Source: a virus
Lineage: Duplodnaviria; Heunggongvirae; Uroviricota; Caudoviricetes
DNA: 23,950 nucleotides
IMG/VR virus record: IMGVR_UViG_2563366917_000002
Reading direction: 5' to 3' (one strand)
Made by a program: the position numbers and the translations under genes. The number at the start of each line of letters is the position of its first letter. Position 1 is the stretch's first letter. This document shows, piece after piece, positions 7,470 to 21,306 of this stretch. The notes beneath the pieces are model-generated. The model saw only the letters and a list, made by a program, of their open reading frames with translations, did no database searches and was not told the origin of the DNA.

Positions 7470-8222
7470 TTATGCTGCAAGTCTCTTAACCCAAGTCTCT
7501 CTTTTGGAGAATGGTAGAACTTGGCTTGATTCATGGAAGAGTAAGGAGAGTTGTTGCATTTGATCACCAATTGCTTCGCTGTCTATAACAACAAATCTGT
7601 TGTTATACTCCTCACTTGAAGCTTTAAGATCAATTAGTTTCCCAAGCAATGAGTAAGCACTATTCCAGCTTCCTCCGTGTTTCACGCTTGATGTAAAAAC
7701 GTATTTAGGTATGTCGGTTTTTATTGTTACAGGGACGGTAATTTGATGTCCACTCAAGCCATATACGTTTTCACGAAGAGAAAGTGCGTCTCTAAGCTCT
7801 GTGTGATATAGATAATCAATAACCATACTTTCAAACTTTTCAGCTTGAACTGGCTGATACCAGTCTAACGACAAAGTTGATGCGAGTATACCAGCTCTAA
7901 TTATGTTCGATGTAATCGCACCGACATCCTTTTCTGTTGCCCAAGCAATGATTTCTCCTCGAGCATTGAGTTCTGCGCCTTCTTTAAGCAGTAATTGTCG
8001 TATCTCATCAAGTCGTTTTTTGGTAAGCGAGATCCCTCTTGCCTCCATATTCATTAAGGCATCGCATCTGTCACTAACTAAATACCTACCATTGACTTCA
8101 CGGATAAAGGCACCGACATGCTCTCCATCATCACAGTAAGTGAATGGACTGATAATTCTCAAGGTCTTGCCTATTGGATGGCATTCGAAACCTAGTTGTG
8201 AGATCACTGTTGAGCACATCAT
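7470..8222 (-). CDS. unknown protein, gene 2 of a two-gene module at the rexAB-equivalent locus
   Basis: 250-aa ORF. Its ATG overlaps the upstream gene's stop (ATGA). By eye the DNA is AT-richer than flanking phage genes. No Walker A, HEPN or obvious nuclease motif recognised. Confidence 0.6.
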   Translation of the reverse strand: MMCSTVISQLGFECHPIGKTLRIISPFTYCDDGEHVGAFIREVNGRYLVSDRCDALMNMEARGISLTKKRLDEIRQLLLKEGAELNARGEIIAWATEKDVGAITSNIIRAGILASTLSLDWYQPVQAEKFESMVIDYLYHTELRDALSLRENVYGLSGHQITVPVTIKTDIPKYVFTSSVKHGGSWNSAYSLLGKLIDLKASSEEYNNRFVVIDSEAIGDQMQQLSLLFHESSQVLPFSKRETWVKRLAA

Positions 8223-8776
8223 ATTCCAAACCCCATTTGCCCCGACTCATCTTCAAGCGGTAAAGGTATTCTCCCAGAGTAAGTTATGTTCAGATGTTTA
8301 CAGAAGTAATTCCAATACCCTACCAGGTCATCTGGGTTTATGTCATCTTCGATTGGAAACGCTATTCTATCACTATAGTATCCAGCTTCTTCATAGTATA
8401 CATGGTAGTGAGCACCGTAAATGATATCTTGGTACTTCGGATGATCGACCTTGTAACTATTCGTGTGTTTGTCAAAGTGATAGGTATCTACCGCGAAAAC
8501 CCTCTTGTTATGATAGAAAGCAATAATATTTATTTTAGGGTAAGAAATCGGGTCATCAGGTTCTGAATCCTGATCTGGTTTCCATTTCAGTTCAAACTTT
8601 AGCCCTTGTATAGGTATACAATCCTCATCCAAGGGGATGATATGGGCTTGTAGCCACATATCAGAGCGACTTGGTTTCTGTTTCCATTTAACGCCAGAAA
8701 AGTTAACTATTTTTTTACAATAAAGTACTTTATCAACTTCTACTTGGCTTGGCTGATAATCATCTATTTTTGCCAA
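8219..8776 (-). CDS. unknown protein, gene 1 of a two-gene module at the rexAB-equivalent locus
   Basis: 185-aa ORF beginning 39 nt after the cI stop. The first in-frame start is TTG at 8776, with a GGCGG-like Shine-Dalgarno upstream; the frame is closed upstream by TAA. Rich in Tyr/His/Asp; no recognised family. Confidence 0.55.
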   Translation of the reverse strand: MAKIDDYQPSQVEVDKVLYCKKIVNFSGVKWKQKPSRSDMWLQAHIIPLDEDCIPIQGLKFELKWKPDQDSEPDDPISYPKINIIAFYHNKRVFAVDTYHFDKHTNSYKVDHPKYQDIIYGAHYHVYYEEAGYYSDRIAFPIEDDINPDDLVGYWNYFCKHLNITYSGRIPLPLEDESGQMGFGI

Positions 8777-8815: not shown

Positions 8816-9475
8816 TCACCCAAACGTCTCTTCAGGCCATTGGCTGGCGATAACTTTCCCCACAACGGAACAACTCTCATTGCATGGGATCATTGGGTAT
8901 TGTGGGTTTAGTGGCTGTAGAAACACCTGACCGCTATCCCTGATCAGTTTCTTGAAGGTAAATTCATCACCACCAAGTCTGGCTATGCAGAAATCGCCGG
9001 GCTCAACAGCTTGCTCAGGGTCAACCAGAATTAACATCCCGTCAGGAAAGCTGGGTTTGGAACCTGTTGGTGCGGTCATTGAGTTACCTTCAACCTCAAG
9101 CCAGAATGCAGAGTCACTGGCTTTTTTGGTTGTGCTTACCAATCTCTCCGCATCGCCTTTGGTAAAGGTTCTGAGTTCTGGAGAGAACATCCCAGCCTGA
9201 ACATGAGAAAAAACAGGGTACTCATATTGTTTTTTAACTGGGGCCGATGAGTATTCGCCAACAGGTGAAAATGTCCCGTCGTGGTTGAATGATATGTTAT
9301 CAATACCAAGGTATTTAAACACCACACCAATATCACTAAGAGATGGATGACGAGATCCGCGCAACCAGTGTCCAATCCCACCCTGCGTCATACCTAGCTC
9401 TTCGGCTAACTTCTCTTGAGTTATGCCGAGCTCTTTCATTCTGGATCTAGCCAGTTCATACCATTTCATTTTCAT
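8816..9475 (-). CDS. cI: cI repressor: lambda-identical C-terminal dimerisation/autocleavage domain with a non-lambda N-terminal HTH domain
   Basis: From ...[50 protein letters not shown]... to the end it matches lambda cI (S24 peptidase-like domain). The N-terminal ~90 aa ([44 protein letters not shown]...) is a different HTH. Start taken at 9475/9469; the track ORF extends to 9517. Confidence 0.9.
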
Positions 9476-9586
9476 GTCCTTATTATTACGCTCTGTACTG
9501 GAACCATCCATGCACAATGTGTATTTTTACTTGTATTCGCAAAGTACATATTGTATTTTTTTATTCGTGTTTACTATGGAGGGCAT
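9476..9586. promoter_or_regulatory. OR / pRM / pR region between divergent cI and cro
   Basis: 111-bp AT-rich intergenic region with GTAC/TGTA-containing partial palindromes (e.g. AGTACATATTGTAT at 9543-9556) resembling the OL palindrome at 7225-7239. Confidence 0.55.
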
Positions 9587-13368: not shown

Positions 13369-13712
13369 CAATGGATTATTCACAGTTAAGTGATTTTGAA
13401 ATTAACAGAATGGTAGGAGACATAATTTTTAAAGGCCTTTGGGCAAGTAAACCGGAAACATCAGGGAATAACACCAACAAATGGTATTACGGAAATGCTG
13501 ATACAACTTTTGAGCCATTAAATCATTTGCCTGACTACTGCAATGATCCGAGCGCTTCATGGCCGATTATTGAGAAATACAGGATTTCTATCTTAGACCA
13601 GTTAACTGAATGGTGTGTGGATGCAAAAGGCGTAAGCCCAATATTTGATACCAGACCTCTCCGCGCCGCCATGATTGTCTTTCTCCTGATGCAGGAGGCC
13701 AATAATGCTTAG
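13365..13712 (+). CDS. hypothetical nin-region protein (NinX/DUF2591-like)
   Basis: About 115-aa ORF with its ATG overlapping the ninE stop. No motif recognised. Confidence 0.45.
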
Positions 13713-13899
13713 CCCATCTCAATCCCTTCAATACCTGAAAGAAAGCATAGAGCGGGCTTCAATGTGCACAGAGTGGATTCTATCTAGGTTTAGCGCATAC
13801 AGAAGATTGCCGGTAAAGGGCATGCCAAGCAAGTCGATGCTGCATATGCAAAAGAATGCGCGCTGGAAGGTATGGCGAGAACACAGGTTATGTGGCTGA
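13705..13899 (+). CDS. ninF: NinF-like small protein
   Basis: 64-aa ORF. The N-terminus [18 protein letters not shown] resembles lambda NinF; the remainder diverges. Confidence 0.5.
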
Positions 13900-13918
13900 A
13901 AGAGGGGGTTATTAAGGC

Positions 13919-14281
13919 GTGAATACCTACAGCATCACATTACCCTGGCCTCCGAGCAATAATCGCTATTACCGCCATAATCGCGGGCGCACGCACGTCA
14001 GCGCAGAGGGGCAGGCATACCGCGATAACGTCGCCCGAATCATTAAAAACGCAATGCTGGATATCGGCCTGGCTATGCCTGTGAAAATCCGCATTGAGTG
14101 CCACATGCCGGATCGCCGTCGCCGTGACCTGGATAATCTGCAAAAAGCCGCTTTTGACGCACTCACTAAAGCAGGTTTCTGGCTGGATGATGCTCAGGTC
14201 GTTGATTACCGCGTTGTGAAGATGCCTGTTACCAAAGGTGGGAGGCTGGAACTGACCATCACCGAAATGGGGAATGAATGA
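13919..14281 (+). CDS. rusA: RusA Holliday-junction resolvase
   Basis: 120-aa ORF ([50 protein letters not shown]...) matching E. coli DLP12 RusA as recalled. Confidence 0.9.
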
Positions 14282-14418
14282 TGTTTGAGTTTAATATGGC
14301 AGAACTTCTTCGCCACCGCTGGGGGCGTCTGCGCTTATATCGTTTCCTCGGTTCTGTTTTGACCGATTACCGAATACTGAAGAATTACGCCAAAACCCTG
14401 ACAGGAACAGGAGTATGA
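14278..14418 (+). CDS. ylcG: small protein, YlcG-like
   Basis: Hand-translated 45-46 codon ORF (M)[45 protein letters not shown] overlapping the rusA stop. Resembles DLP12 YlcG as recalled. Confidence 0.45.
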
Positions 14419-14503
14419 AGTCAGAGATAACAATCAACTAATACTGTTTTGTTGATTTTTGCTTGTAATTGGCGTTCTGGTCTGATTTTTGTGGAGTAAG
14501 TTG

Positions 14504-14887
14504 ATGCGTGATATTCAGATGGTTCTTGAGCGTTGGGGTGCGTGGGCGGCTAATAATCATGAAGATGTGACCTGGTCGTCCATTGCCGCCGGTTTTAAGG
14601 GATTAATTCCTTCAAAAGTAAAATCTCGCCCGCAATGTTGTGACGATGACGCGATGATCATTTGCGGGTGCATGGCCCGTCTGAAAAAGAACAACAGCGA
14701 TTTACACGATTTATTAGTAGATTATTATGTATGTGGTATGACATTCATGTCACTGGCAAGTAAGCATTGCTGCTCGGATGGTTATATCGGGAAAAGGTTA
14801 CAGAAGGCTGAGGGCATAATTGAAGGGATGTTAATGGCATTAGATATCCGGTTAGATATGGATATCGTTGCTAATAATTCTAATTGA
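14504..14887 (+). CDS. Q: late-gene antiterminator Q (phage 82 / DLP12 QuuD type)
   Basis: 127 aa from [26 protein letters not shown]..., with GGAG upstream. Cysteine cluster [12 protein letters not shown]. Matches QuuD as recalled. Confidence 0.85.
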
Positions 14888-14913
14888 TATGCAATTGTTT
14901 ACTAAAAGTTATT

Positions 14914-14932
14914 AAAAATGGGGCGTGGAAAC
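14914..14932 (-). terminator. intrinsic terminator for leftward transcription (downstream of the porin gene)
   Basis: Plus ggggcg-tggaaa-cgcccc, preceded on plus by an A-rich run (ttattaaaaat). On the minus strand this is a hairpin followed by AUUUUUAAUAA. Confidence 0.5.
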
Positions 14933-15030
14933 GCCCCCAAAATAAAGGGTAATATATAACAGAAGGTTTATATAGTAAGAAGCAAGGTAGTGCTTCTAAA
15001 GGAAGTGGCTTGAGGGCTCCACTTATATGT

Positions 15031-15069
15031 TGCGGAGGCAAAGCCTCCCGCAACATATCTTTTTCGTAA
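15031..15069 (+). terminator. intrinsic terminator for rightward transcription leaving Q (possibly bidirectional)
   Basis: Long GC stem atatgttgcggagg-caaag-cctcccgcaacatat followed by CTTTTT, located 7 nt from the porin stop codon. Confidence 0.6.
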
Positions 15070-15075
15070 GTCAGA

Positions 15076-16158
15076 TTAGAACTGATAAACCAGACCTACA
15101 GCGACGATGTCGTCGGTATCAATACCAGCTGTTTTGGTAAACTTACTATCGTCAATTAAGTTGATTTTGTAATCAACAAAAGTGGACATGTTTTTATTAA
15201 AGTAGTAAGTAGCACCGACATCGACATACTTGACTAAGTCTCGGTCACCATGAACACCAAGGTCTTTACCTTTTGACTGAAGGTAAGCAACAGATGGACG
15301 CAGACCGAAGTCAAACTGATATTGTGCTACTGCTTCAAAGTTTTGTGCTTTGTTTGCAATATGGTTATTACCAAAAACGGTCATATTCTGAGTTTCAGAA
15401 TATGTGGTAGCCAGATAGATATTGTTCGCATCATATTTCAGGCCTGCAGCCCATACTTCCGCATTTTTGCCGGAGGCATTGAATTTGCTCTTACCATAGG
15501 CGACCTGACCGTCAGTGCGATCTGATTTAGCATAGGTTGCACCCACGCCGAATCCTTCATACTCATAAGTAGTGGAGAAACCGAAACCATCACCATTGGC
15601 TTCAGTTACGTCAGTGCGGTCATTTTTACCCTGATACTGAGCAGCAAAGTTCAGGCCATCGACCAGACCAAAGAAGTCGTTGTTACGATAAGTTGCAACA
15701 CCAGTAGTGCGACCAGTCATGAACACATCTGTTTGGGTCCAGGTATCACCACCGAATTCTGGCAGAACGTCAGTCCACGCACCGATGTCGTATGCTACAC
15801 CGTAGTTACGGCCGTAATCGATTGAGCCGTAATCACCAAATTTCAGGCCTGCAAATGCAAGACGGGTTTTGTCTTTGGAAGAACCTTGAGATTCAGCACG
15901 GTTGCCTTTGAATTCATATTCCCACTGACCGAAACCAGTCAGTTGATCGTTGATTTGGGTTTCACCTTTGAAGCCAAGACGGGCATAAGTAGTATCACCA
16001 TCATCTGCATCATTAGAGGAGAAGTAGTGCTTGGCATTAACTTTCCCGTATAGATCCAGCTTGTTACTGTCTTTATTATAAATTTCAGCTGCCTGAGCAG
16101 ACATCGCCATCAGTACTGATGCAGCTACAGCAGAAATTGCCACTGTTAATTTTTTCAT
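15076..16158 (-). CDS. nmpC: outer-membrane general porin, NmpC/OmpD (Lc) family, phage-borne moron
   Basis: 360 aa from [23 protein letters not shown] (signal peptide) with the porin C-terminus ...VAVGLVYQF. Same position and orientation as nmpC in DLP12. Appears intact. Confidence 0.9.
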
Positions 16159-16587
16159 TGTACGCCCTTTTTTTGAACTATTATTAAAAAATGATGTCAC
16201 TGCGCGATAAATATTCATCTAATCAATGTGATTATTTCAAGATGTAAGTTTTAGTTTCTCATTTAATTTGTGAAGTAGATCTCTATTTTTATCTGAACCT
16301 TTTCTATCTAATCCTATTCATGGCTCTTGTCTGAACAAAAATAAATCTATTAGCTAATTTATATTAATGGCACTTATTTATAAGTGCTCTATAATTCTTT
16401 AGCTTAATTTAAACAAACTAAAAATAACATTGGAAATTATTAACTGGTTATTTGTTGAAGTTTTCTTATGCATTTGTGGTGGTGTTTTGAACACTCGGTG
16501 GCATTCTCACAAATATCATTTAGTAGTTTACGTACGTAAAAAATTGGTTATGCTGTTAAGAGTGGTTACTTCGTCACACAGCTTAAA

Positions 16588-16615
16588 CCCGCCGTCGAGC
16601 GGGTTTTTCCATTTT
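16588..16615 (+). terminator. intrinsic terminator just upstream of the lysis cassette (candidate tR')
   Basis: aaacccgc-cgtcga-gcgggttt hairpin followed by TTCCATTTTTT, about 130 nt upstream of the holin start. Confidence 0.45.
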
Positions 16616-16746
16616 TTGAGTCTCGATATTAGCTGATAACCCAATACCTGAGTTATTCACTGACTCCGAATCTGTTACGTTTCTGCCTTTATTGCGATAC
16701 GTAGTATCCCCTTAATTTACACCCGCTTTGTCTGCGAGGTGGGGTT

Positions 16747-16962
16747 ATGAAATCCATGGATAAGTTAACAACGGGTGTCGCCTATGGTACCTCAGCAGGT
16801 AGTGCCGGGTACTGGTTTTTACAGTTGCTCGATAAAGTCACGCCCTCACAGTGGGCGGCAATAGGTGTGCTGGGTAGCCTGGTATTTGGCCTGCTGACGT
16901 ACCTGACAAACCTTTATTTCAAGATTAAAGAAGATAAGCGCAAGGCTGCGAGAGGTGAATAA
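16747..16962 (+). CDS. S: class II holin, phage 21 S21-type pinholin
   Basis: 71-aa ORF with a dual-start motif (MKSMDK...) and two transmembrane segments ([17 protein letters not shown]... / [23 protein letters not shown]). Resembles S21 as recalled. Confidence 0.85.
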
Positions 16963-17459
16963 TGCCTCCATCATTACGAAAAGCCGTTGCTGCTGCTATT
17001 GGTGGCGGAGCAATTGCTATAGCATCAGTGTTAATCACTGGCCCAAGTGGTAACGATGGTCTGGAAGGTGTCAGCTACATACCATACAAAGATATTGTTG
17101 GTGTATGGACTGTATGTCACGGGCATACAGGAAAAGACATCATGCTCGGTAAAACGTATACCAAAGCAGAATGCAAAGCCCTCCTGAATAAAGACCTTGC
17201 CACGGTCGCCAGACAAATTAACCCGTACATCAAAGTCGATATACCGGAAACAATGCGCGGCGCTCTTTACTCATTCGTTTACAACGTGGGTGCTGGCAAT
17301 TTCAGAACATCGACGCTTCTTCGCAAAATAAACCAGGGCGATATCAAAGGCGCATGTGATCAGCTACGTCGCTGGACATATGCTGGCGGTAAGCAATGGA
17401 AAGGTCTCATGACTCGTCGTGAGATTGAGCGTGAAATCTGTTTGTGGGGTCAGCAATGA
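16962..17459 (+). CDS. R: SAR endolysin (lysozyme with N-terminal signal-anchor-release domain)
   Basis: 165-aa ORF with a Gly/Ala-rich hydrophobic N-terminus ([18 protein letters not shown]), followed by a T4-lysozyme-like catalytic region. Confidence 0.85.
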
Positions 17460-17917
17460 ACAGAGTAACCGCGATTATCTCCGCTCTGGTTATCTGCATC
17501 ATCGTCTGCCTGTCATGGGCTGTTAATCATTACCGTGATAACGCCATTACCTACAAAGCCCAGCGCGACAAAAATGCCAGAGAACTGACGCTGGCGAACG
17601 CGGTAATTACTGACATACAGATGCGTCAGCGTGATGTTGCTGCGCTCGATGCAAAATACACGAAGGAGTTAGCTGATGCGAAAGCTGAAAATGATGCTCT
17701 GCGTGATGATGTTGCCGCTGGTCGTCGTCGGTTGCACATCAAAGCAGTCTGTCAGTCAGTGCGTGAAGCCACCACCGCCTCCGGCGTGGATAATGCAGCC
17801 TCCCCCCGACTGGCAGACACCGCTGAACGGGATTATTTCACCCTCAGAGAGAGGCTGATCACTATGCAAAAACAACTGGAAGGAACCCAGAAGTATATTA
17901 ATGAGCAGTGCAGATAG
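17456..17917 (+). CDS. Rz: Rz i-spanin
   Basis: ATG overlaps the R stop. N-terminal transmembrane segment, then coiled-coil-like periplasmic domain. Confidence 0.8.
17676..17858 (+). CDS. Rz1: Rz1 o-spanin lipoprotein, embedded in the +1 frame of Rz
   Basis: 60-aa ORF with a lipobox (LVVVGCTS) and a proline-rich stretch ([18 protein letters not shown]), lying wholly inside Rz. Confidence 0.75.
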
Positions 17918-17948
17918 AGCTGCCCATATCGATGGGCAACTCATGCAA

Positions 17949-18242
17949 TTATTGTGAGCAATACACACGCGCTTCCAGCGGAGTATAAATGCCTAAAGTA
18001 ATAAAACCGAGCAATCCATTTACGAATGTTTGCTGGGTTTCTGTTTTAACAACATTTTCTGCACCACCACAAATTTTTGCTGCATCGACAGTTTTCTTCT
18101 GCCCAATTCCCGAAACGAAGAAATGATGGGTGATGGTTTCCTTTGGTGTTACTGCTGTAGGTTTGTTTCCAACAGTAAACGTCTGTTGAGCACATCCTGT
18201 AATAAGCATTGCCAGAGCGGCAGAAAACAACATTTTTTTCAT
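17949..18242 (-). CDS. bor: Bor serum-resistance lipoprotein
   Basis: 97 aa from MKKMLFSAALAMLITGCAQQ..., matching lambda Bor as recalled. Lipobox LITGC. Confidence 0.9.
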   Translation of the reverse strand: MKKMLFSAALAMLITGCAQQTFTVGNKPTAVTPKETITHHFFVSGIGQKKTVDAAKICGGAENVVKTETQQTFVNGLLGFITLGIYTPLEARVYCSQ

Positions 18243-20549: not shown

Positions 20550-21306
20550 TGCAGCCGGTGCGATAGCTACAGGGCTTTTATCTCTCATTATTCCTGTTCC
20601 ACTGACGACAGTTCAGTGGGCCAATAAACATTATTACCTTCCTAAAGAGTCGTCTTATACCCCGGGGCGATGGGAAACACTGCCGTTTCAGGTTGGCATC
20701 ATGAACTGTATGGGCAACGATCTGATTCGCACGGTTAACCTGATTAAATCTGCCCGTGTTGGTTATACAAAGATGTTGCTGGGAGTGGAGGCTTATTTTA
20801 TTGAGCATAAATCACGCAACAGCCTTCTTTTTCAGCCCACGGACTCAGCTGCTGAAGATTTTATGAAATCTCATGTTGAGCCAACGATAAGGGATGTTCC
20901 TGCATTGCTGGAGCTGGCTCCATGGTTCGGAAGAAAACACCGCGATAATACGCTCACCCTGAAGCGTTTTTCCTCCGGTGTGGGGTTCTGGTGTCTGGGT
21001 GGTGCGGCAGCAAAAAACTACCGTGAAAAATCCGTGGATGTGGTCTGTTATGACGAGCTTTCCTCGTTCGAACCGGATGTTGAAAAAGAGGGTTCGCCAA
21101 CCCTGCTGGGGGATAAACGTATTGAGGGCTCTGTATGGCCAAAATCCATTCGCGGCTCGACGCCTAAAATCAAAGGCTCCTGCCAGATCGAAAAAGCCGC
21201 TAACGAGTCGGCACACTTCATGCGTTTTTATGTGCCCTGTCCGCACTGTGGGGAGGAGCAGTATCTGAAATTTGGCGATGATGCCTCGCCTATGAGACGA
21301 CAATAA
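20521..21306 (+). pseudogene. A: terminase large subunit (gpA) 5' fragment, interrupted by an IS insertion
   Basis: Homologous to the lambda gpA N-terminus (...VQWANKHYYLPKESSYTPGRWETLPFQ...). Reading frame is lambda-like up to ...KFGDDASP at 21291, then runs into the IS and stops at 21306. Confidence 0.85.
21285..21291. repeat. target-site duplication (left copy), CTCGCCT
   Basis: The 7-bp sequence ctcgcct occurs at 21285-21291 and again at 23701-23707, flanking the IS. Removing the IS and one copy restores the gpA frame. Confidence 0.6.

Follow-up and report, generated by a model that had tools for sequence, protein, structure and literature searches.

The segment 16527–16617 of the window, by which we mean the whole analysed stretch of 23,950 nucleotides from IMG/VR virus record IMGVR_UViG_2563366917_000002, is quite probably the Q-dependent late regulatory unit of this phage. 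Comparisons with related phages support its being a late promoter-terminator unit that would respond to the cognate Q protein of the window and that is separated from the Q gene by a porin moron.

The window has the gene content of a typical lambdoid prophage, running from an integrase (1–1143) through a cI-like repressor, cII, O, P, Dam, NinX and RusA to Q (14504–14887), a leftward porin gene (15076–16158), an S21-type holin (16747–16962), an endolysin, Rz and Nu1/terminase. The equal lengths (380 amino acids) of the open reading frames at 1–1143 and 15076–16218 are a coincidence, the former encoding the integrase. Two leftward open reading frames at 7470–8776 (minus strand), one for a DUF1828 protein of 249 amino acids and the other for a product of 185 amino acids, adjoin the cI-like repressor gene (8816–9517). 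Lambda has rexAB beside its cI repressor gene, and the two reading frames of the window may be another cargo or defence pair.

In the stretch from Q via the porin gene to the holin gene the window is 99.9% identical to the Escherichia phages ev017 and PhiR57_1. The layout with the porin is common to 36 phage records, including PA-2 and a derivative of phage 434, and the DLP12 prophage of K-12 exhibits it as quuD-nmpC::IS5-essD. We take ev017, PhiR57_1, PA-2 and the 434 derivative, all with this layout, to be viable phages.

The promoter-hairpin unit and its Q protein

The Q antiterminator gene (14504–14887, plus strand; 127 amino acids) is of the 933W/DLP12 type and matches Pfam family PF06530 with 181 bits. 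Over residues 1–120 its product is 81% identical to Q of VT2-Sakai/933W, and it shares 96% identity with QuuD of K-12 and 32% with Q21. Q21 is also the nearest solved structure, PF06530 being the Q21 family, and the proper comparator for the window is 933W and, structurally, Q21. The likeness to Q933W stops at Q residue 120 (~14864) and returns at the first base of the −35 hexamer. With its Q being 81% identical to the VT2-Sakai/933W protein, the window therefore contains a cognate pair of Q and promoter site.

The earlier note had pointed to a promoter and to a hairpin with a T-tract upstream of the holin gene, and both were found again, shifted by 1–3 nt. By direct reading, the promoter consists of TTTACG (16527–16532), a 16-nt spacer (tacgtaaaaaattggt) and TATGCT (16549–16554, plus strand), the latter aligning with the TATCAT of the annotated VT2-Sakai late promoter. 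The −35 hexamer lies in a perfect 14-bp palindrome, TTTACGTACGTAAA (16527–16540, plus strand), which occurs as a single copy in the window and is a candidate Q-binding element. Further downstream, positions 16557–16584 (plus strand) comprise the start region, with A16561 as the predicted start, and the conserved initial transcribed region. The terminator scan placed the hairpin, AAACCCGCCGTCGAGCGGGTTT, at 16585–16606. It comprises eight pairs, five of them G-C, between 16585–16592 and 16599–16606, a 6-nt loop and the tail TTCCATTTTT, and the hairpin alone has a folding energy of about −12 kcal/mol. Together with its T tract (16585–16617, plus strand) it is a candidate tR′ according to both scan and fold.

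By consensus the promoter is weak, and such matches are frequent by chance. It agrees with the consensus in four of six positions of each hexamer and is under the threshold of the promoter scan (9 of 12 consensus positions), and 31 equally good 4+4 matches are present within the 4.5 kb from 13500 to 18000. Consensus promoter scanning could not separate TTTACG-16-TATGCT from this background. As the match by itself is not beyond chance, the weight given to the promoter derives entirely from conservation and orthology.

This orthology leads to the Stx phages. Positions 16524–16608 of the window are ~78% identical to positions 20704–20787 of VT2-Sakai (AP000422), for which a 'putative late promoter' (TTTACG-16-TATCAT), a 'putative Q-utilization' site and a 'possible rho-independent terminator' are annotated, which bears out the pR′-tR′ identity that the earlier note had suggested for the region. 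The annotated unit of VT2-Sakai begins inside the last Q codons, overlapping the 3′ end of the gene. A search in distant mode with 16440–16746 matched 360 phage records, most of them over 16524–16608 only and at ~78%. Some of the matching records, such as ev207, annotate a hypothetical protein under the match to 16440–16746. In the window, a 68-amino-acid open reading frame with a TTG start (16430–16636, plus strand) overlaps the promoter-hairpin unit; Pfam gave no match for it, and it probably does not represent a gene.

In strain Sakai, mapping by dRNA-seq and Term-seq showed a distance of 258 nt between the PR′ start and the 3′ end of tR′ (PMC7547250); the Sakai coordinates of that study disagree with the numbering of NC_002695.2, and only the distance was used here. 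On the VT2-Sakai sequence (L002), 258 nt fit with a start at the A located 7 nt after TATCAT and with the second annotated terminator, and it is this application of the distance from which A16561 is predicted as the start in the window. Plasmid reporters with the reference Stx PR′ site were induced in lysogens upon induction of the resident prophage, and of five constructs stated to lack the PR′ site, three (derived from FUA1306, FUA1309 and FUA1399) were reported without DsRed expression (PMC6266700). The response of the plasmid-borne reference site therefore indicates that this site works in trans.

The 'putative Q-utilization' site of Sakai, TACATTGC (with TACATT), aligns with TACTTC at 16568–16573 (+8 to +13) of the window, a motif common to most variants of the census described below. 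As this −10-like TACTTC is without the usual final T, it is uncertain from the sequence whether sigma-dependent pausing would occur there.

Between the promoter and the holin gene the scan revealed no rightward terminator-like site other than 16585–16617. The plus strand downstream of the unit contains the genes for the holin (16747–16962; Pfam Phage_holin_2_1), the endolysin (16962–17459; Phage_lysozyme), Rz and Nu1 in this order, and from the holin start onward the lysis region is 80% identical to S-R of phage 21. PR′ promoters are generally constitutively active. If this also applies to the promoter of the window, the hairpin at 16585–16606 must be what keeps the lysis genes off, as it is the sole rightward terminator-like site before the holin gene.

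For VT2-Sakai, the first hairpin with its T7 (L002 1564–1586, +26 to +48) is apparently read through in the absence of Q, as the mapped PR′ transcript is 258 nt long; the second terminator is located at L002 1767–1795. Either the first hairpin is leaky or RNAs of ~50 nt were missed by the mapping. The hairpin of the window may likewise be a leaky terminator, and its efficiency is something we infer, as the orthologous hairpin of Sakai is not the mapped tR′.

A short terminated RNA could also be the main product of the unit and act as a regulatory sRNA in lysogens, like StxS, instead of serving late gene control. PR′ fires constitutively in lysogens, and processing of the Stx PR′ transcript yields the Hfq-binding sRNA StxS (PMC7547250). 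However, the alignment with Sakai covers only −37 to +48, and the StxS part (+173 to +258) is without a counterpart: nothing in the window matches L002 1587–1800, the region of the processed 74-nt 3′ part and of the +258 terminator. Nor does the unit match any Rfam family, the only hit at E ≤ 1 over 13500–18000 being a chance match of the hairpin after Q to sau-19 (E = 0.79). A role of the RNA in place of late control is thus very unlikely, and the production of such an RNA would be compatible with a late promoter in any case.

A further reading stems from the GenBank record of PA-2 (J02580), in which positions 1067–1087 are annotated as a CRP-binding site. These positions map to ~16561–16581 of the window, so that the conserved stretch would be a CRP site regulating the porin gene. 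Its right half, TCACA, indeed fits the CRP consensus. The left half-site, however, matches in only two of five positions, the stretch is ~400 nt away from the porin start codon, and it is nearly invariant in the porin-less VT2-Sakai, 1720a-02, SfII and Stx2a_1447. We consider this reading extremely improbable and rejected it on account of the conservation in porin-less phages; the label in the PA-2 record is doubtful.

The late promoter-terminator reading is compatible with the following mechanism. A sigma-70 promoter of the TTTACG-16-TATCGT type would start transcription at A16561 and would be followed by the conserved first ~25 nt and by an intrinsic-terminator hairpin at +25 to +46. Without Q, polymerase would start at the unit and halt at the hairpin, yielding an RNA of ~50 nt and leaving the holin gene, which lies 186 nt beyond the start, silent. 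After induction, Q produced from 14504–14887 would diffuse to the unit and bind near the −35 hexamer and the spacer, with the palindrome as the candidate element. There it would load onto polymerase that has paused a short way into the transcript, and the Q-bearing enzyme would pass the hairpin and continue into S, R, Rz and the structural genes. The unit would be the ortholog of PR′ of 933W/VT2-Sakai, which overlaps the end of Q in those phages, and the leftward porin cassette (14865–16526), which brings terminators and an AT-rich promoter region of its own, would have replaced the last Q codons and the short junction between Q and PR′. As Q is a diffusible protein, the separation by 1.6 kb would be harmless.

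The porin cassette and promoters proposed elsewhere

From the Q stop codon (14887) to the −35 hexamer at 16527 the distance is 1,639 nt, in line with the displacement of about 1.7 kb given in the earlier note. The intervening 1.66 kb consist of five parts, namely seven new Q codons with the stop codon, a leftward terminator, a rightward hairpin, the porin gene and a low-GC upstream region. The leftward intrinsic terminator (14920–14937, minus strand), found by the scan as GGGGCGTTTCCACGCCCC followed by ATTTTTAATA (−13.8 kcal/mol, z = −2.77), sits in a segment confined to loci with the porin cassette and is likely the end of the porin transcript. Where a strong rightward terminator had been claimed after Q, there is indeed a hairpin (15025–15058, −21.9 kcal/mol, z = −6.05), which is followed by CTTTTT (15025–15064 with the T run, plus strand) and which would presumably halt unmodified early transcription at the edge of the cargo. 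The porin gene itself (15076–16158, minus strand; lc/nmpC/OmpD-like, 360 amino acids; Pfam Porin_1, 504 bits) is annotated as porin, NmpC or OmpD in the 36 phage records and occupies the place taken by lc in PA-2 and by nmpC in DLP12. The right part of the cargo is the AT-rich upstream region of the porin gene (16159–16526), with a GC content of 0.27–0.34 in the composition profile; it was seen only together with the porin cassette.

Both edges of the cassette, 14865–15075 and 16219–16523, were found only in loci carrying the porin. With its leftward porin gene, its leftward terminator and its upstream region with a GC content of down to 0.27, the segment 14865–16526 is a self-contained porin cassette with the features of a moron, and it is absent from VT2-Sakai despite the 81% identity of the Q proteins. 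This supports the earlier idea of a moron splitting Q from its site of action. The cassette does intervene as had been proposed, but it is not a clean insertion, as the last codons of Q have been replaced and the similarity to Q933W ends at residue 120.

Convincing promoters had not been seen directly after Q, and it holds that no candidate before the porin gene passes 9 of 12 consensus positions. There is, however, a 4+4 match at 14926 (TGGAAA-18-TAATAT, 14926–14955) that equals the promoter of the unit in quality. The late promoter could then be located right after Q, with the hairpin at 15025–15064 as tR′ and the porin gene downstream of tR′, like stx in Stx phages. The strong rightward hairpin with its T run does follow ~70–110 nt further on, in a geometry that recalls PR′-tR′ of lambda. 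However, the segment 14865–15075 is present only in porin phages, close relatives of the Q protein having four other layouts with different downstream DNA, and it shows no similarity to the PR′ region belonging to the 81%-identical Q933W. In addition, the putative −35 hexamer falls within the stem of the leftward terminator, and late transcription from there would have to cross the whole porin gene in antisense direction and then the conserved hairpin at 16585. We give a late promoter at this position only a very slim chance and rejected it, as the Q-proximal segment is specific to the porin cassette.

A different position follows from work on DLP12. Rueggeberg et al. (2015) reportedly found the essD promoter of DLP12 to be RpoE-dependent. 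A DLP12 reporter fragment described as '−121 to +650' was active in K-12, and its primer Pdlp12Fw maps to position 16086 of the window, which places +1 at ~16207 and the promoter at ~16175–16207 (K-12 ~576,874; PMC7918800). The position is deduced only from these primer coordinates; the reverse primer Pdlp12Rv has no exact match in K-12 or in the window. A GAACT...GTCACT motif just upstream of ~16207 resembles a sigma-E promoter. The lysis genes could hence be driven mainly from ~16207, a start which adjoins the porin start codon and is located ~350 nt upstream of the PR′ ortholog, and the unit at 16527–16617 would be nothing but a downstream attenuator or a relic. However, the reporter fragment also includes 16527–16617, so its activity cannot tell the two promoters apart. 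As the region around ~16207 belongs to the porin cassette and is absent in relatives with other or no inserts, a promoter there cannot be the general late promoter of the Q family. The strong conservation of the −10 hexamer, start region and hairpin across clades also speaks against a relic. We therefore regard this explanation as unlikely, and the promoter at ~16207 and the unit at 16527–16617 may coexist in porin-carrying phages.

Layouts between Q and the late promoter in related phages

The textbook layout has the Q gene immediately followed by PR′ (bioRxiv 10.1101/651190), an adjacency from which the window departs with its 1,639 nt between the Q stop codon and the −35 hexamer. When IMG/VR was scanned for TAAGAGTGGTTACNTNGNCAC, which is the core of the initial transcribed region, at least 120 loci were obtained, and in 101 of those listed a PF06530 Q gene was found upstream on the same strand. 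Among the 19 other listed loci, 18 had less than 1.6 kb of upstream sequence. The exception, L068, has the core motif and 3.9 kb of upstream sequence, in which no PF06530 Q was detected; it contains either a longer insert or a Q too divergent for detection. Q was adjacent to the motif (5–40 nt) in 25 of the 101 listed loci and was split off by an insert of 0.6–2.5 kb in the other 76, so adjacency of Q and PR′ is not universal in the family of Q21/Q933W-type proteins.

Among the matches listed, at least 22 sequence classes of inserts can be told apart, with porin inserts forming the largest class (34 loci); the GC content of the inserts is 0.31–0.45, and their main genes are oriented leftward in 20 of 22 classes. 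The right junctions of all these inserts lie at the first base of the palindrome. Leftward two-gene inserts are seen in the deposited genomes of SfII and of the Stx2 phage Stx2a_1447, and phage 1720a-02 is a counterpart with the adjacent layout. PADLOC matched insert proteins to KwaB of Kiwa, the KAP NTPase PDC-S20, PDC-S42, the HNH protein PDC-M68A, PDC-S54 (weakly, E = 7e-6) and PDC-M53A (SfII gp50), and it gave no match for 13 of the 20 insert proteins scanned. The cassettes unmatched by PADLOC are those of loci L015, L017, L019, L031, L049, L062, L083, L097, L103, L108, L118 and L119. Five of these loci (L015, L083, L031, L097, L103) have sets of two genes, encoding a protein of ~300 amino acids and a small membrane protein, that look like uncharacterised defence systems. 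In two further loci with a window-type Q (L054, L071), inserts of 626–630 nt contain a single leftward gene for a predicted lipoprotein of 148–159 amino acids, which may be another surface-modification cargo.

The promoter-hairpin unit itself varies little. Roughly from −10 to +50 it hardly changes among phages whose Q proteins share no more than 46–51% identity, and this includes TAAGAGTGGTTACTTCGTCACACAGCTT within 16557–16584; conservation from −4 to +17 was built into the search pattern of the census, whereas the −10 hexamer and the hairpin are outside of it. Among the matches listed, position 2 of the −10 hexamer is A and position 6 is T in nearly all of the 43 upstream variants, and 55 of 60 distinct variants have a GC-rich hairpin with a perfect stem followed by Ts. 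Divergent variants have different stems, for example AAACCTCGC/GCGGGGTTT and GAAACCCTGCC/GGCGGGGTTTT. Where the hairpin failed, it was mostly a form of the same stem with a single mismatch, and about a quarter of the porin-type loci have such a stem mismatch (GAGCTGG).

Positions −36 to −23, by comparison, vary by Q clade, each clade having its own inverted repeat followed by a run of A or T. Among the matches listed, TTTACRNNCGTAAA occurs with the Q of the window/933W type in 51 loci (adjacent layout and four insert classes), ACGCGNACGC with the Stx2a_1447/SfII type in 17 loci (adjacent layout and eight insert classes) and CGCGGNCCGC with the 1720a-02 type in ~24 loci (adjacent layout and nine insert classes), besides three rarer palindrome types. 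In 933W the repeat reads TTTACGATCGTAAA, again a perfect palindrome, and the variants ACGCGTACGC and CGCGGTCCGC each belong with their own Q proteins. No mismatched pair of Q clade and palindrome was found across the 101 listed loci, in adjacent and split layouts alike. As its type changes with the Q clade whatever the insert, the palindrome over the −35 hexamer is a candidate Q-binding site. A Q-binding element would be expected to combine a part that is common to all clades and contacts the host polymerase with a part specific for Q, and the observed pattern matches this expectation. The association between Q clade and palindrome could also be simple linkage, as each insert class was seen with one Q clade only.

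Taken together, these observations raise the possibility, to which we give somewhat less than an even chance, that in lambdoid phages with a Q of the 933W/DLP12 type the interval from Q codon ~120 to the first base of the −35 hexamer is a dedicated cargo slot. It would have been filled many times with leftward cassettes expressed in the lysogen (at least 22 classes among the 101 listed loci, including porin, Kiwa and candidate defence genes), the split arrangement being the majority state, and Q proteins of the family would bind to an inverted repeat that differs by clade and overlaps the −35 hexamer, unlike the direct repeats of Q21. A limited literature search found no description of a recurrent cargo slot between Q and PR′ or of the clade-specific palindrome. 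Both the slot and the palindrome as the likely Q-binding element are leads, short of established findings.

The 141-nt unit (16500–16640) is present at a coverage of at least 80% in 2,413 of 5,426 complete E. coli genomes (~44%). No annotated feature over the unit was found in ten sampled E. coli genome rows, and the K-12 RefSeq, PA-2 and 434B records contain no late promoter annotation at this place; the submitters of 434B annotated PR′ in detail in their phage 21 record. The promoter-hairpin element is of an ordinary, known kind and the split layout is common in related phages, which leaves the insertion site as the one feature that may have a broader interest. The analysis supplies the missing annotation of the likeliest late transcription start and of the hairpin that would keep the lysis genes off in the lysogen, and it indicates that cargo can be accommodated between a regulator gene and its DNA target. 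A search of the junction between Q and PR′ could turn up new prophage-borne genes for defence or surface modification; if the interval is indeed a cargo slot, the unassigned cassettes would be promising places to look for new genes of defence or lysogenic conversion. The loci also provide a natural series of pairs of Q and promoter for the study of site choice by Q proteins of the 21/933W family.

Comparison with known systems

The closest characterised counterpart, 933W/VT2-Sakai (Sp5), shares with the window the TTTACG −35 hexamer, the 16-nt spacing, the palindrome over the −35, an aligned −10 hexamer, near-identical first 25 nt of the transcript, the hairpin with a T tract at +25 to +46 and a Q protein with 81% identity. 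In the Stx phages, however, the promoter overlaps the end of Q, with 17 nt from the stop codon to the core motif, whereas both are 1,639 nt apart in the window. Moreover, the mapped tR′ of the Stx phages is a second terminator at +258, with StxS in between; the window is without both and has the holin gene directly next to its unit.

DLP12 (qsr′; quuD-nmpC-essD), the lc region of PA-2 and 434B agree with the window in gene order, and the unit preceding their holin gene is identical or nearly identical to that of the window, the one of DLP12 in K-12 being identical. DLP12 differs in that IS5 interrupts the porin gene, which extends the separation of Q and unit to ~2.9 kb, and the promoter work on DLP12 used a start ~350 nt further upstream than the unit of the window. 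434B (L001/L132, OL657227.1) contains a DLP12-type Q-nmpC::IS5-S module that is flagged in its record as a region of 434 non-homology. It is presumably a viable phage, with Q ~2.9 kb away from the promoter unit.

In its Q21/PR′21 cassette, phage 21 has a Q of the same family (PF06530), a Q-binding element in the −35/−10 region, a sigma-dependent pause element and a terminator that lies no more than ~50 nt into the transcript, and its holin-endolysin module is of the S21 type. Its Q protein is, however, only 32% identical, its promoter shows no DNA similarity, Q directly neighbours PR′, and the terminator is followed by tRNA genes. The element of Q21 consists of two direct repeats, ATTGAGCA/AATGAGCA, whereas the candidate of the window is an inverted repeat.

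With morons and prophage cargo hotspots, for example the defence hotspots of P2/P4, the interval between Q and the unit has in common a fixed junction and many alternative, self-contained cassettes of low GC content, including Kiwa and PADLOC candidates. Hotspots of the P2/P4 type are located between structural or integration genes, whereas the slot next to Q lies between a regulator gene and its DNA target.
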